DNA from: a virus
Virus genome (UHGV): UHGV-0213559
Reading direction: 5' to 3' (one strand)
Length of the DNA stretch: 43,138 nt
Below are positions 8,982 through 15,131 of the stretch, in pieces. Position numbers and translations under genes: made by a program. The notes below the pieces were generated by a model that was not told the origin of the DNA, searched no databases, and was given only the letters and a program-made list of their open reading frames with translations. The stretch's first letter is position 1, and every line of letters begins with the position of its first letter.

Positions 8982-9658
8982 GCAAATACACCGAACTAAT
9001 CACGAACTATCACGCCACCAAACCTAAATTTCTTGCACATGCTGATCTGATGACCAGGCCGCTTATTGATGTTGCGGCTGCCACCAGAGGGCTGATTACT
9101 GCATTTGATATTGACTCCGCGGTTGGTGTGCAACTTGACATTCTTGGATTGTGGATCGGACGTAGCCGTGTTGTCAGCCAGCCTATCTCAAGTGTCTATT
9201 TCAGCTGGGATACCGACGGGCTTGGGTATGATCAGGGTGTATGGCAGGGGCCATACGATCCTGATTCAGGATACATGTATCTCAGCGATGAAACTTATCG
9301 TGTCATTCTTAAAGCGAAGATTGCGATTAATAACTGGGACGGACGGAATGATTCGCTTCCGGCAATCCTTGACGCTGCAACAGCAGGATCCGGACTGCGA
9401 ATGCAGATTGTCGATAACCAGGACATGACGATATCGGTCTGGGTCTTTCCTGATACAGATATTTCAGATGTATCGCGTGAGTTAATTGCGGCAATTAAAC
9501 AGGGGTATCTCACAGTAAAAGCCGCCGGGGTATGGGCGGGTGGCATTGAAACACCTTCGGTTGAAACCCCATCGGAAGGTTCAAAATTTTTTGGTTTTGA
9601 TATGGATAACGAATTTATCAGTGGTTTTGATGTAGGGGCATGGGGAGTATTACTCTGA
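8978..9658 (+). CDS. tail protein I-like (baseplate)
   Basis: 226-aa ORF overlapping the J-like stop, upstream of the tail fibre. Confidence 0.45.
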
Positions 9659-10734
9659 TGACAAAAAATGACTTTAAAGCATTCGCAACGGGTAAAAATG
9701 CCAATGTTATGTCGCAGGAGGAATGGGAAGCGTTGCCTGCGCTTTTATCCGGATTTACAGCAGGGAAAGCATCCAGTGCGCAAGTCAATAAGGTTATTCG
9801 GCAGGCCAGCTTTATTGCATCTGCAATAGCACAATATACAGCAAATGAAAGTGGACTGGATGTACAGGATGATGGCGATCAGGCCGGCTTTATCGCAAAA
9901 ATGTCGTCTGCATTAGATAAGAACTATCAGAGAATTAATGCCATACTTACCGCACTTGCTAATCTTTCAGCATCCGAAAACAAATTACCGTATTTTACCA
10001 ATCAAGATACCGCTAATTTGGCTGACCTGACACAGGTTGGGCGAGATATTTTGGCAAAAAGCTCTGTTGCTGATGTCCTTAAATATCTTGGTCTGGAAGA
10101 TAATTCGACCTTTCCTGTAGGTGCCCCGATCCCGTGGCCATCAGATACAGTTCCATCTGGTTATACTCTGATGCAGGGACAGACTTTTGACAAGTCTGCA
10201 TACCCGAAACTTGCAGCCGCTTATCCGTCAGGCGTGATCCCTGATATGCGTGGCTGGACGATTAAGGGCAAGCCCGCCAGTGGTCGTACCGTATTGTCTC
10301 AGGAACAGGACGGCATTAAATCGCACACCCACAGCGCCAGCGTATCCAGTACGGATTTGGGTACGAAAACCACATCGTCGTTTGATTACGGGACGAAAAC
10401 CACCTCACTATTTGACTATGGGACCAAAACTACCAGTAACGCCGGGAGTCACACGCATTCAATACCAACATCAGATGGTGCAAACCAGGGGGGGAAAATT
10501 CCACTGACATCTGGGCGTCTGGCAACTCAATATACATCAGCAACAACAGGTTCCTCTGGCTCACATTCTCATACTGTAGGTATTGGTTCTCATCAGCACA
10601 CTGTCGGTATTGGTGCACACACGCACTCCATTGCGATTGGCTCACATGGACACACCATCACCGTTAACGCTGCTGGTAACGCGGAAAACACCGTCAAAAA
10701 CATCGCATTTAACTATATTGTGAGGCTTGCATAA
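9658..10734 (+). CDS. tail fibre protein
   Basis: ATG at 9658 overlaps the preceding TGA (ORF track starts 9640 in frame); C-terminal half has tandem GTKTTS and SH-x-H-T[VI]-[GA]-IG repeats typical of fibre tips. Confidence 0.65.
10350..10665 (+). repeat. tandem coding repeats in the tail-fibre tip (3 x DYGTKTTS-like, 4 x H-x-H units)
   Basis: near-identical nucleotide units of about 30 nt (gggacgaaaaccac...) and about 27 nt (ggtattggt..ca.ca.cac) visible directly. Confidence 0.6.
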
Positions 10735-11312
10735 TGGCATTCAGAATGAGTGAACAATCACGAACCATCAAAATTTATAATCTGCTGGCCGGAACTAATG
10801 AATTTATTGGTGACAGTGACGCATATATTCCACCTCATACAGGTCTACCTGCAAACAGTACCGATATTGCACCGCCAGATATTCCGGCTGGCTTCGTGGC
10901 TGTTTTCAACACTGATGAGGCATCGTGGCATCTCGTTGAAGACCATCGGGGTAAAACCGTCTATGATGTGGCTTCCGGCGACGCGTTATTTATTTCTGAA
11001 CTTGGCCCATTACCGGAAAATGTCACCTGGTTATCCCCGGAAGGGGAGTTTCAGAAGTGGAACGGTACATCCTGGGTGAAAGATGCAGAAGCAGAAAAAC
11101 TGTTTCGGAACCAGGAGGCGGAAGAAACAAAAAACAGCCTGATGCAGGTAGCTAGCGAGCATATTGCGCCACTTCAGGATGCTGTAGATTTGGATATTGC
11201 GACGGAAGAAGAGGCATCGTTACTGGCTGCATGGAAGACATATCGGGTATTGTTGAATCGTGTTGATACAACAGTAGCAGCGGATATTGAGTGGCCAGTC
11301 GCCCCACAATAA
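10734..11312 (+). CDS. tail fibre assembly protein (Tfa / gpG-like)
   Basis: 192-aa ORF with ATG overlapping the fibre stop (TAATG); composition typical of lambdoid/P2 Tfa chaperones. Confidence 0.65.
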
Positions 11313-11320
11313 AAAGAAAA

Positions 11321-11346
11321 AGCCATCGATAGAAATATCGATGGCT
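11321..11346. terminator. bidirectional intrinsic terminator hairpin
   Basis: perfect 10-bp stem AGCCATCGAT/ATCGATGGCT with 6-nt loop, A-run on one side and T-rich on the other; sits between convergent tfa (+) and acyltransferase (-) genes. Confidence 0.55.
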
Positions 11347-11355
11347 TTATGTGCT

Positions 11356-11961
11356 CTATTTATACAATACAACACCGCTCTTTTTAGTTATATATGTGCA
11401 GTTCGATGGTATATCTTTATTTATAAAAGACATTGCGCCTATTTTTACATTATCCCCGATTTTACGTGATAATCCAATGATGCAACAATTAGCTCCGATA
11501 TCAACGTTACTACCAATTTTTACTCTTGAACCAGGTATGTCACCATCTATCTGTCCAATCGTAGTATTCTGTCGTAACACCAGATTTTCACCAGCATCAA
11601 CAGCAAAATGAACAACAATTCCAGCGTGATGGGGAATTGTTAGCCCTTTTCCAATTTTTGCGCCCAGTCCAATCTCGCAACCAAATTTGTTAATTATTTT
11701 ATTGTTTAACTTTTTAGCAGCTTTCTTATGTAATTTATTACCATTAATATACATTTCGTTAGCCAGCCGCCACCAGAAAAGGAAATTCCTGTTACGCTGT
11801 TTTTTCTCTCTGAAAAGCCTCCAGATATTCATATGCTCCCGCCGTATTACTTCAGATTTCCAAAAGCTTTTTAAATCAGAAGAATTTCCAAGTAAAACAA
11901 AATGAATTGCTATTAAGTAAGATAACACGATAATCTCCTTAATTATTACTTTCGACCACAT
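11356..11961 (-). CDS. hexapeptide-repeat (left-handed beta-helix) acyltransferase, CysE/LacA-type
   Basis: 201 aa; C-terminal half shows repeated [LIV]-G-x-x-x-x hexads (IGLGAKIGKGLTIPHHAGIVVH..IGSNVDIGANCCIIG..IGDNVKIGAMSFI); N-terminal hydrophobic helix; strongly AT-rich. Confidence 0.55.
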   Translation of the reverse strand: MWSKVIIKEIIVLSYLIAIHFVLLGNSSDLKSFWKSEVIRREHMNIWRLFREKKQRNRNFLFWWRLANEMYINGNKLHKKAAKKLNNKIINKFGCEIGLGAKIGKGLTIPHHAGIVVHFAVDAGENLVLRQNTTIGQIDGDIPGSRVKIGSNVDIGANCCIIGLSRKIGDNVKIGAMSFINKDIPSNCTYITKKSGVVLYK

Positions 11962-12080
11962 TAGTCCTAAATTTAATGAAGTGTAAAATCTGGTTGTTTG
12001 TTATTTAAAAACTAAGTTCGTGATACTTTACGGATGCTGAGGAGAGCATTATACGATACTTTTCTGCACACTCATAGTAA

Positions 12081-12254
12081 AAAACACCAGAACAATGGGC
12101 GCAGGCTGGGCGATTAATTGCATCAGGAGTTCATCGCCAGAATGTGGCGATTATCTATGATGTTAGCGTAACGACTGTGTATAAGAAGTTTCCTGCAGGT
12201 GAAAATGAAAACATAGCACGTCGTATCCAAGTACGTGCCTCGGCTGTCTGGTAA
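12081..12254 (+). pseudogene. remnant of Hin/Gin/Pin-type serine DNA invertase (C-terminal HTH only)
   Basis: stop-bounded frame with no start codon encodes ...GVHRQNVAIIYDVSVTTVYKKFPAG..., resembling the Hin C-terminus (PRQQLAIIFGIGVSTLYRYFPAS); the catalytic N-terminal domain is absent. Confidence 0.5.
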
Positions 12255-12289
12255 GCTTGTAAAAATCTTGAACAGGGAGTGGAGCATTT

Positions 12290-12937
12290 CTATGAAGCTA
12301 ATTTGTTTAATTTTATTTGTAGTGACTTTACTTCTTGGTCGATAATGTTGAATCCCTTATTGACTGCATCTCTTAGCTCTGCATCAATATTTTTTATCCC
12401 TTGAGCATAATCTACCATTACATTTATTTTTGCATCATGTAATCTCTTATACATGGTTTTATCTTTGTTATTGTCTGCCATGCCAATAAGGATTTTTTCA
12501 TAATCCTCAATGAGTTTGTTGTTTCCTTTAAATGATTGTATTAATGAACGTGAATATGTGTATATATTAATTATTGAGTCTCTAGCAGAATCATTTAGTT
12601 TTGCAATGACATTCGCATTTTGCTCATAGAATGTGAAATTATCATCCCCTACAGGGAAAGTGAGAATCAACATTTGTCCCGGTTTGATATTATCAATGTG
12701 TGTTTTCATCCTTTTATTATATAAATTGATTAGGGTGAAAACTTCTCCCTTAACTCCTTTTAATACTGAAAGTTGTAATTCAAGGGATTCTCTTTCTGTC
12801 CCTACTTTAGACAGCTTAGCTTGTTGGGTAACTCCTTTTAGGGTAAACCATCCGCCAATAAGAGTACCAACTAGAGCTGTGAGGGAGGAGGATAACCATC
12901 CAGGAATACTATTTAAAAGATTACTAAATTCACTCAT
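12290..12937 (-). CDS. hypothetical membrane-anchored protein (215 aa)
   Basis: ORF-track ORF; one N-terminal hydrophobic helix (WLSSSLTALVGTLIGGWFTL); very AT-rich; cargo position between tail fibre genes and attP/int. Confidence 0.5.
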   Translation of the reverse strand: MSEFSNLLNSIPGWLSSSLTALVGTLIGGWFTLKGVTQQAKLSKVGTERESLELQLSVLKGVKGEVFTLINLYNKRMKTHIDNIKPGQMLILTFPVGDDNFTFYEQNANVIAKLNDSARDSIINIYTYSRSLIQSFKGNNKLIEDYEKILIGMADNNKDKTMYKRLHDAKINVMVDYAQGIKNIDAELRDAVNKGFNIIDQEVKSLQIKLNKLAS

Positions 12938-12995
12938 TATAAGTACTCGCTAATATTGAACGATATATATATCAAATTATTATAAAACTCGTCAG

Positions 12996-13274
12996 CTACT
13001 GGAGAAGGCTACCTGAACTTCGATCTATTCCTGCATCCATATAGTTGATGGTCTTCTGGAGCTCTTCGATTAGGGCAACAGCTTTTGCTCGAGAAATGCA
13101 TATTAGTTGATCCGGAAATTCTTGTAAGGGCCAGTTTGGTATACAGGCCATGTTATCAGTGAAGGATGCAGACAAGTAAACTTCATTGGTAACCAGAGAA
13201 TAGCTTACCTCAAAATTGGTGAGTTCCGGCAAACTGCTAACGTTTGACTCTTTTCTGCGCATAATATTATCCAT
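12996..13274 (-). CDS. hypothetical protein (start uncertain; ORF track extends to 13430 from a GTG)
   Basis: AT-rich ORF upstream of and co-oriented with 12290-12937; no convincing SD for any candidate start. Confidence 0.3.
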   Translation of the reverse strand: MDNIMRRKESNVSSLPELTNFEVSYSLVTNEVYLSASFTDNMACIPNWPLQEFPDQLICISRAKAVALIEELQKTINYMDAGIDRSSGSLLQ

Positions 13275-13430
13275 GACTGTGATTATGTACAGGTGATGGT
13301 CTTCAATTTCGAAGAGGGAGTCAAGGGGGAGTCTCAAATGAACCGTTATAGAAAGGGGGAGGATCTTTGTGTTGCTGAACTTATGCAAAATTTTTTTGCA
13401 CCATAAATCCAACAACACATTCAATAACAC

Positions 13431-13727
13431 ATTGCTGTATCACTATGAAAATAAGTGTGTTTTTATTTGATTTCACACATATCACAATTAATACAGCGTT
13501 TAGTAATTAGTAAAGACATTTCAATGGATTACCGTTAAATCAATTTAAAATCAGTAAGTTGTATCGAGTTTGTATGCTTTACTGTCATTAACTTACTGTA
13601 TGTTGATCCAGTGTATTTAACCTTGATAAACTCAGTCCAGCAACACAAAACCGCAACACATTGCATTTTGTCCCGTAAAAAAGACTTGTATGTGTGAGCT
13701 TGTTTTCTGCGCCTACGCAGATAAGGA
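13431..13727. other. candidate attP region upstream of int
   Basis: AT-rich non-coding stretch immediately 5' of the integrase; inverted 9-mers CAGTAAGTT (13552-13560) and AACTTACTG (13590-13598), each followed by GTAT. Confidence 0.3.
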
Positions 13728-13733
13728 TTGAGA

Positions 13734-15131
13734 ATGCCGCGCACTGTAACACATAATCCGGATAGCCCCAATAATGACGATGTTTTAGCCGCATCCGAAA
13801 AATGGGACGCCTGTAAACCCCCCTATACCAGCGCACACATGAAAATCTGTGTTGCTGCCGCCAAAATCATCCTCGCTGCTTCCGGCGTGGCTCGCCGTTC
13901 CAAATACGAAAAAGAGAACTATCTCCGTATCGATTTCAGCAAAGCCGGTAAGGTTACATTTTACGCCGAGTTTCCAAAAAAGATGGGCCTCAAAGGTAAA
14001 AAGCTCGGCGAGTGGCCGGAGCTCGCTATCCAGCTGGCGCGCGAAAAAGCGCTAGGTATGGCTGACGGTGGCCTGCGGGCAGAGTCCGTACATGCAGCGC
14101 TGGAAATGTACCGGGATGACCTCAAAGCCAAAGTCGCCCGGCAGAAGCTGAGCCCGGACAGTTTCACAACCTACGGGGTGCGTATCGACCGGATTAAAGC
14201 AACGTTCGGCGAGCGCGAGGTGTTCAGCGACGTAACATACAATCGGCTGGTGGAAGTGCTGGACGAGTGGATCGCCACTCGCTCGAACAATAACGCCCTG
14301 GAGTTGTTTGCCGAGCTCCGTCGGTTCTGGAAGTTCTGTGCACCTACTCTTTGCAACGGCCGCAATGTTGCCGCCAGTCTGCCAGATGATTATGTTTCCT
14401 CCCGCGTACAGAAACCTACCCCCACACGGCTTTTTACCGATATTGAATCAATCGCCCGACTCTGGCTCAATGTTGCTGCCTGCACCTCTGTACACCAGAA
14501 GAATGCTGTTCGCTTCATGATCATCACTGGCGTTCGTCCGATTAATGTCCATAACCTGCGCTGGGACTACGTTCACGAGGAGGCTGGTGAAATTGTTTAT
14601 CCGGAAGGGGTTATCGGCATGCGAGGGGCTATGAAAACACAAAAGGCTTTCCGCCTGCCGATAACACCTGAGATCCGGCGGATTATCGACGAGCAGAAAG
14701 CCTGGCGTGATTCAGTTCCTGAGTGCAACAGGGATTATGTATTTTTGCAGCCACGTGATCCAATGCAGCCATTTTCAAAACGATCACTGGATAAGCTGGT
14801 GAAAACATACAGCCCGGACGGGGCTGTAAAAGGAATAAAACATGATGGGACTGTTAAAGGGAAAGACGGTGCATTTAATACGATGTGCCGTAAATTCCTT
14901 AAGAGCAATGTTATTGCCTTGATGAAGGAAAGAGGCTATTCCCGATCAGACCGAAGGGAAATCAGCCTCCTTTGCCTTCACCACTCCAGCAAGTCAGATG
15001 ACCCGATGGCAGAACATTACGACTTTTCTGATGAGATTTTGCAGGAAGAGATTGCGTTAAAGCGCGAAGCTTTCGAGGCTCACGAGCGGAGCATACTTGC
15101 GCAGGTTGCATTGCTACGGCGGCGAGGTTAA
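13734..15131 (+). CDS. int: tyrosine integrase (P4-like family)
   Basis: 465 aa from ATG 13734 with AAGGA SD (ORF track starts at TTG 13728); length, composition and position next to an AlpA-like gene fit a phage integrase. Confidence 0.75.
   Translation: MPRTVTHNPDSPNNDDVLAASEKWDACKPPYTSAHMKICVAAAKIILAASGVARRSKYEKENYLRIDFSKAGKVTFYAEFPKKMGLKGKKLGEWPELAIQLAREKALGMADGGLRAESVHAALEMYRDDLKAKVARQKLSPDSFTTYGVRIDRIKATFGEREVFSDVTYNRLVEVLDEWIATRSNNNALELFAELRRFWKFCAPTLCNGRNVAASLPDDYVSSRVQKPTPTRLFTDIESIARLWLNVAACTSVHQKNAVRFMIITGVRPINVHNLRWDYVHEEAGEIVYPEGVIGMRGAMKTQKAFRLPITPEIRRIIDEQKAWRDSVPECNRDYVFLQPRDPMQPFSKRSLDKLVKTYSPDGAVKGIKHDGTVKGKDGAFNTMCRKFLKSNVIALMKERGYSRSDRREISLLCLHHSSKSDDPMAEHYDFSDEILQEEIALKREAFEAHERSILAQVALLRRRG

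Follow-up and report, generated by a model that had tools for sequence, protein, structure and literature searches.

A truncated pin invertase gene as the probable mark of a tail-fibre switch replaced by a fixed tip, chaperone and acetyltransferase block in Escherichia coli prophages

Downstream of the fibre and tfa genes in a 43,138-nucleotide viral genome (UHGV-0213559; hereafter the window, meaning the whole stretch of DNA analysed) lies a short stub that, to judge from its sequence, is a non-functional relic: of a serine DNA invertase gene of the pin family, only the final 41 codons are left. We propose that the stub is the dead 3′ end of pin, left where a phase-variable switch was replaced by a fixed block encoding a fibre tip, its chaperone and an acetyltransferase, and that the junction between block and stub was made once and then spread between prophages; we put the probability of this reading at roughly 0.85. 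The predicted outcome in the window phage is a single fixed receptor-binding tip together with an acetyltransferase moron. An initial annotation of the same DNA had already recognized the helix-turn-helix (HTH) remnant, the loss of the catalytic domain and of the invertible segment, and the fixed fibre, all of which stand. Its picture of a decayed gene, broken by the insertion of adjacent cargo, needs correcting. The coordinates of the features discussed are collected in Table 1.

Table 1 Features between the tail fibre gene and the phage attachment site (window coordinates)
Feature	Coordinates	Strand	Remarks
Tail fibre gene, mosaic, 364 aa	9640..10734	+	Collar domain; N-terminal ~60 codons (to 9818) 97% identical to switch-keeping siblings
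Best pixL-like 26-mer in the window (TCCTTAAATATCTTGGTCTGGAAGAT)	10076..10101	+	17/26 against sibling pixL, at the equivalent 'LGLxE' codons
Tfa tail fibre assembly chaperone	10734..11312	+	Caudo_TAP, E 1.6e-41; part of the cassette
Hairpin terminator separating tfa from the acetyltransferase gene (convergent pair)	11319..11348		13-bp stem and T run, called on the minus strand
Hexapeptide-repeat (LbH) acetyltransferase moron, 201 aa	11356..11961	-	phrog_2154, E 1.5e-84; relatives annotated 'sacF' or serine acetyltransferase
Intergenic stretch left of the junction	11962..12083		Among complete E. coli genomes, 12013-12083 occur only at loci with the sacF/delta-pin junction (16 genomes)
Delta-pin stub (3′ 123 nt of a pin-family invertase gene)	12084..12206	+	PinE codons 144-184; HTH_7 domain only
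Read-through tail	12207..12254	+	pin stop lost, 1-nt gap; frame gains 16 codons
Cargo gene, 215 aa	12290..12937	-	Conserved beside intact pinE in siblings
attP core, 38 bp	13472..13509		Also present on both sides (attL and attR) of the prophage in TB06051

The stop-bounded plus-strand frame at 12081-12254 translates to KTPEQWAQAGRLIASGVHRQNVAIIYDVSVTTVYKKFPAGENENIARRIQVRASAVW. It matches the Pfam family HTH_7 (PF02796, 'HTH domain of resolvase') with an E-value of 8.1e-11 and a score of 42.3 bits (cut-off 23.8), and it also matches PHROG 125, 'DNA invertase' (E 8e-8). When PinE, the 184-residue invertase of a sibling prophage, is compared with the window by tblastn, residues 144-184 alone align, at 12084-12206 (E 7e-18), and the alignment of Cin from phage JL22 is limited to residues 146-181; neither protein gives a second match at E ≤ 0.1 in the six frames of the 43-kb window. 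The initial annotation had assigned this frame to the C-terminus of a Hin/Gin/Pin-type invertase, with coordinates that prove right to within 3 nt, and the similarity goes far beyond what chance would give. It had also reported that the frame has no start codon and that the N-terminal catalytic domain is missing, and both observations hold. A TAG and a TAA codon stand directly upstream with no ATG, the sole start-like codon being a late GTG at 12144 inside the HTH, and the resolvase-type catalytic domain with its nucleophilic serine (PF00239) is absent, PinE residues 1-143 being unmatched by tblastn (E ≤ 0.1) across the whole window. Judged as a functional serine invertase, the locus has HTH_7 but neither a catalytic domain nor a complete ORF with a start codon; judged as the remnant of a pinE-derived gene, it shows both nucleotide homology at the orthologous position and disabling lesions.

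Over 12084-12206 the stub is ~87% identical to sibling pinE, compared with ~97% for its flanks. The sequence GGAGAT[A/G]AATGA, which includes the pin stop, is present in all other alleles, and in the window this stop is gone. Further changes fall at residues that are identical in PinE, Cin and the other compared stub alleles: the Pro before Arg-Gln has become His, and S-T-L has become T-T-V in the recognition helix. The stub is presumably not expressed. It is an ordinary pseudogene, of a kind already annotated in public E. coli genomes.

A megablast search of 5426 complete E. coli genomes returned two kinds of relatives. The initial annotation had proposed a comparison with relatives that retain an intact invertible segment, and a prophage of E. 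coli BH100N (L002) provides one. At the same chromosomal site, L002 carries the fibre gene, tfa, tfa′ and fibreC′ (both on the minus strand), an intact 184-aa pinE, a 215-aa minus-strand gene and then yfhH, with 18-nt inverted repeats where the two crossover sites are expected, pixL within the fibre gene and pixR immediately before pinE. The window and L002 are 97% identical as far as 9818, some 60 codons into the fibre gene, and again from exactly 12084 to 13509. Between 9818 and 12084, 2514 bp of L002 have been swapped for 2266 bp of unrelated or distantly related sequence, and the L002 segment lost in the window comprises the fibre tip, tfa, tfa′, fibre tip′, pixR and pin codons 1-143. The novel joint reads …CATAGTAAAAA on its left side and ACACCAGAACAATGG… on its right. 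Nucleotide homology to intact pinE begins exactly at 12084; over more than 2 kb to the left of it, no frame is related to pin. The initial annotation had described the gene as decayed; the alignment shows instead a clean, sharp 5′ truncation at 12084 as the main lesion, rather than accumulated point decay, with the loss of the stop and the recognition-helix changes being secondary and minor.

In its position relative to the 215-aa gene and the attachment site, in its orientation and in its placement downstream of fibre and tfa, the stub resembles pinE of the e14 P segment and the intact pinE switch of the yfhH-site siblings. Unlike e14 and these siblings, the window is without codons 1-143, pixL, pixR, the inverted tfa′ and fibre tip′, and the pin stop codon. 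Gin with the G segment of Mu and Cin with the C segment of P1 belong to the same invertase family, and their logic of an invertible fibre tip and chaperone would correspond to the ancestral state of the window locus. In contrast to Mu G and P1 C, however, nothing invertible is left in the window.

Several searches for the remaining parts of a switch bear on this point. A palindromic consensus for gix/pix/cix/hix-like sites has no match at ≤3 mismatches in the whole window, and the sibling's real pixL and pixR, together with gix, hix and cix sites, have none at ≤7 mismatches, so the search for gix-like sites that the initial annotation had suggested comes back empty. The core AAACCNNGGTTT was also used to search the window and the fibre gene, and it yielded nothing beyond the 17/26 pixL-like 26-mer listed in Table 1. 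That 26-mer is not above chance, another match elsewhere in the window being as good, and it has no partner site; it is a vestige only. No trace of sibling tfa′/fibreC′ or of JL22 U and S is found by tblastn on the minus strand of 9600-12300, where the only minus-strand gene is that for the acetyltransferase, in agreement with the earlier observation that no inverted alternative fibre segment is present. In the Hin, Gin and Cin systems, the Fis-dependent recombinational enhancer sits within the 5′ portion of the invertase gene; by analogy, it would be missing from the window, from which the 5′ 429 nt of the pin gene are absent. Inverted crossover sites, an inverted alternative tip and chaperone and, by the same analogy, an enhancer, which together characterize switches of the Mu G, P1 C and e14 P type, are thus all lacking. 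Because there are no crossover sites and no inverted tfa′ or fibre tip′, the fibre is fixed, as the initial annotation had proposed on the view that the switch appeared to have been destroyed.

The block that occupies the place of the switch has relatives in several kinds of mobile element. From 9977 the fibre gene is 86% identical to lambda stf, and tfa is likewise 86% identical to lambda tfa. The C-terminal part of the fibre that is shared with the mobile cassette starts at ~10072 in comparison with a prophage at torT (L007) and at 10113 in comparison with the P1-like phage-plasmid JL22, to which 10113-11927 is ~90% identical at the nucleotide level. In JL22 the stf-tfa-sacF block lies inside the C segment, adjoining U′, S′ and an intact cin. 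The substitution was noted by the authors of the JL22 study, who stated the role of the acetyltransferase as unknown (PMC9603915). JL22 therefore carries the same cassette as the window but keeps U′, S′ and intact cin, whereas the window phage, a 43-kb integrating phage of myovirus type unrelated to JL22, has lost the switch and has the block fused to a dead pin stub. With a GC content of 32-38%, the acetyltransferase gene is AT-rich; it accompanies stf-tfa in several kinds of prophage, P1-like and P2-like ones included. A P2-like prophage remnant in O157:H7 also has the tfa-acetyltransferase pair, and its homology to the window reaches position 12012. Inside the 3′ tfa coding sequence, at 11077-11275 on the plus strand, the E. 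coli sRNA candidate IS009 (Rfam RF02111) is matched over its full length, at 189 bits against a gathering score of 117.

The junction itself is shared. The 124 bp to its left (11960-12083) are found in 16 of the 5426 complete E. coli genomes. Twelve of these carriers belong to the window's own family at yfhH, including the prophage of TB06051 (L003) and L005, and the other four are different prophages, located at torT (L007), yecD/aspS (L008 and L010) and dacD (L009). In all six carriers that were inspected (L003, L005, L007, L008, L009 and L010), the identical joint to the pin stub is aligned, and this junction, which we call A-type, also occurs in IMG/VR contigs (L020 and L116). The backbones of L007-L010 differ leftward, and on the right their homology to the window stops at ~12251, ~45 bp past the original pin stop. 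The pattern is that of a horizontally exchanged cassette: the same junction and the same right boundary at ~12251 recur in at least four backbones and sites, and parts of the block are found in P1-like and P2-like elements. Since an identical junction in at least four backbones at four sites makes independent breaks unlikely, it would have been formed once and then spread, and the simplest reading is that one event founded the block, which then spread horizontally as a whole. In L005, which belongs to the yfhH family, the stub has the SNP pattern of L008 and L010, and after ~12250 the pattern becomes that of L002; this change suggests that a homologous exchange took place at the stub's 3′ end.

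A pre-deletion ancestor, in which 12013-12083 would run into tfa′/fibre′ and a full pin, was not found. A 19-mer from 12040-12058 has no match in species-representative genomes or IMG/VR, 11960-12083 is seen within E. coli in junction-bearing genomes only, and a second scan of the species-representative genomes with a pin HTH pattern gave unrelated GC-rich matches only. The founding event is accordingly one that we infer rather than observe. We propose that the ancestor, in a form kept in most yfhL/yfhH siblings, carried a Mu/e14-type switch composed of the constant part of the fibre, pixL, a tip and tfa, inverted tfa′ and tip′, pixR and pinE. An acetyltransferase flank would have been fused to pin codon 144 once, by illegitimate deletion or fusion, in an ancestor of unspecified backbone. 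Cassette and junction could then have moved together between unrelated prophages by homologous recombination, the left arm being conserved fibre/tfa sequence and the right arm the 3′ end of pin with ~45 bp downstream. In the window lineage, such an exchange would have put a block ending in the mobile cassette in place of all sequence between a point within the fibre gene and pin codon 143.

One observation could speak against a single origin. In a second, B-type cassette (L012), an acetyltransferase that is only 36% identical in protein and has a non-alignable left flank is joined to pin 0-4 nt from the same position. The matching A and B breakpoints would be explained by a single ancient event, if the cargo then diverged for long while recombination with intact pins repeatedly 'refreshed' the stub; a hotspot or quasi-site event would also explain them. 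More speculatively, the stub may be a conserved 'handle', a right homology arm for cassette swaps into pin-switch prophages that fix the host range, or else the near-identical breakpoint may reflect a recurrent cut by a recombinase inside pin. We regard this extension as doubtful.

Other explanations for the stub can be weighed against the same data. Truncation in place, which comes near to the model of the initial annotation, would have the acetyltransferase insertion destroy the phage's own pin and alternative fibre, with the resulting structure exported later. The junction is indeed commonest in the yfhH backbone (12 of 16 genomes), and the window right of ~12252 is continuous with sibling sequence. 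Nevertheless, until ~12250 the L005 stub has the SNPs of the yecD type (L008 and L010) and not those of yfhH-family pinE (L002), the window stub matches no resident allele above 88%, and the replaced interval also has a different fibre tip and tfa, so that simple insertion is insufficient; we consider an in-place origin unlikely. An intact invertase hidden by an assembly or sequencing artefact, such as the frameshift that the initial annotation had named as grounds for abandoning its own view, has a negligible probability. No intact frame and no support for such an artefact were found, pin homology ends at 12084 with >2 kb to its left unrelated to pin in all frames, and the same junction recurs in independently finished genomes (11960-12083 in 16 of them) and in IMG/VR contigs.

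The B-type breakpoint raises the further possibility of a hotspot or site-specific event, for example action of Pin on a quasi-crossover site within its own gene near codons 141-144 (TCCCAAAC-TT-ACACC), with the two cassettes joined independently. The internal pin sequence at issue is GTCCCAAACTTACACCAG. Consistent with this idea, the A- and B-type left flanks are unalignable (500-1000 shuffles, no excess score), the acetyltransferases are as divergent as noted above, both cassettes abut pin within 0-4 nt, and TCCCAAAC, just left of the break in pin, matches 8 nt of the sibling pixR half-site. Iida and Hiestand-Nauer reportedly described Cin-mediated deletions at quasi-cix sites in the 1980s, which we also count in its favour. 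When inspected by eye, however, the left flanks of both junctions match half-sites at ~4-5 of 12 positions and are without AAACC, and the would-be right half-site in pin matches at ~2 of 12. In IMG/VR, other truncations of pin fall at different points (about nt 105, 155 and 388), and with about six truncation classes, a single coincidence within 4 nt has by our own estimate a chance of ~20%. Moreover, the LbH acetyltransferases of the two cassettes are homologous and point the same way, in favour of one old event and later divergence. A hotspot therefore seems to us quite improbable. The specific version in which the junction is a hybrid crossover site was rejected as the main explanation, as its flanks poorly resemble half-sites. 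We record separately that, in intact pin, the near-palindrome GGACGACGTCC and TCCCAAAC immediately precede the point corresponding to the joins at L012 3992 and window 12084. Finally, the stub might be kept because it is functional, either as a small HTH protein or regulator or as a cis element, such as a promoter or terminator, serving the acetyltransferase gene or the cargo downstream. It does persist beside two very divergent acetyltransferase cassettes, and in one E. coli lineage a fusion of 72 aa has been annotated (P0001). By contrast, the window copy has no start codon, has stops directly upstream and is altered at residues identical in PinE, Cin and the other compared stubs; nonsense codons occur in different lineages, and the stub is deleted in IAI1 and partially so in P0045. 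There is a single weak plus-strand sigma-70-like match inside the stub, in a region whose count of such matches is no higher than in shuffled sequence, and no Rfam family reaches threshold in the stub. We judge a retained function to be very improbable, and continue to favour a dead pin 3′ end whose junction was made once and then spread.

The copies of the stub differ in the changes that disable them. Two in-frame stops are present in L007, a CAG codon has become TAG in L005, L008 and L010, and the stop codon has been lost in the window and in L003. In IAI1 the stub has been deleted, and in P0045 what is left after partial deletion is fused to downstream sequence. The P0001 copy carries a frameshift that joins an upstream ATG to the HTH frame and is annotated as an 'HTH domain-containing protein'; the part fused there corresponds to a 27-codon ATG ORF at 12035-12118 on the plus strand of the window, which overlaps the junction in another frame. 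Independent lesions of this kind fit neutral decay. PGAP/RefSeq labels such copies 'helix-turn-helix domain-containing protein' and 'incomplete; missing N-terminus', with 'internal stop' added for some. The truncated pin pseudogenes that RefSeq flags in E. coli prophages are likewise HTH-only C-termini, from which the window copy differs solely by allele-specific substitutions and the lost stop. We take pinH of K-12 to be another truncated pin pseudogene.

The allele in the window and TB06051 is unusual in its divergence. It has ~17 private substitutions in 140 bp (12107-12250) and is ~12% diverged from all other E. coli pin alleles, the closest being 88% identical, whereas its flanks are ~97% identical to relatives. 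No intact pin allele close to it was found: none in E. coli exceeds 88%, and the maximum in the phage collection is 77.5% amino-acid identity. In a set of 5.8 billion proteins, the sole close match is another stub, that of P0001 (96%). This patch, which our simple model leaves unexplained, likely reflects conversion from an unsampled allele.

The stub itself is of little importance: E. coli prophages often carry truncated pin genes, and copies of this one are already flagged in RefSeq. It is useful as a marker, both of descent from phase-variable relatives in a phage that now has a single lambda-Stf-like tip and of the timing of the swap relative to the flanking cargo. More broadly, and of modest interest, the locus would illustrate how temperate phages trade host-range flexibility for lysogenic-conversion cargo, because the stretch between fibre and attachment site is occupied in some phages by an invertible switch and in others by one of several acyl/acetyltransferase morons. 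In the window's family, the interval from tfa to the attachment site is hypervariable and contains an intact switch, the A-type cassette, the B-type cassette (L012) or an acyltransferase_3 gene without a pin remnant (IAI1, L013). An intact switch is present in most of the 80 genomes carrying the downstream cargo, and IMG/VR loci add further variants, in which the differently truncated pins mentioned above stand beside other cargo. The enzymes of this slot comprise two LbH types, 36% identical, and the unrelated acyltransferase_3 family, which suggests a link between fibre tips and surface-modifying morons. Minus-strand acyl/acetyltransferases occur repeatedly between tfa and pin: besides the one in the window (11356-11961), they are seen in L012 (3359-3904), L013 (2432-3499), L025 and L097.

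The initial annotation had seen adjacent cargo as the probable cause of the damage. The cargo to the right of the stub, at 12290-13430, adjoins intact pinE in siblings, however, and is therefore not the cause of the truncation, in which ~2.5 kb were replaced by 2.27 kb; both of its genes are kept in siblings whatever the state of the switch. These two minus-strand genes, encoding proteins of 215 aa and, at 12996-13430, 144 aa, are AT-rich (29-37% GC) and lie between the stub and attP. Neither protein has a Pfam or PADLOC match, and PHROG gives only a family of unknown function, for the 144-aa protein. In TB06051, the same 43 kb form a prophage inserted between yfhL and yfhH, its two ends occupied by the integrase and the cargo, respectively; identity is 99.8% over the regions compared. 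The shared 38-bp core indicates that the window is an excised, circularly permuted and complete phage genome. Next to the attP core, at 13728-15131, lies a gene for a tyrosine integrase of 467 aa.
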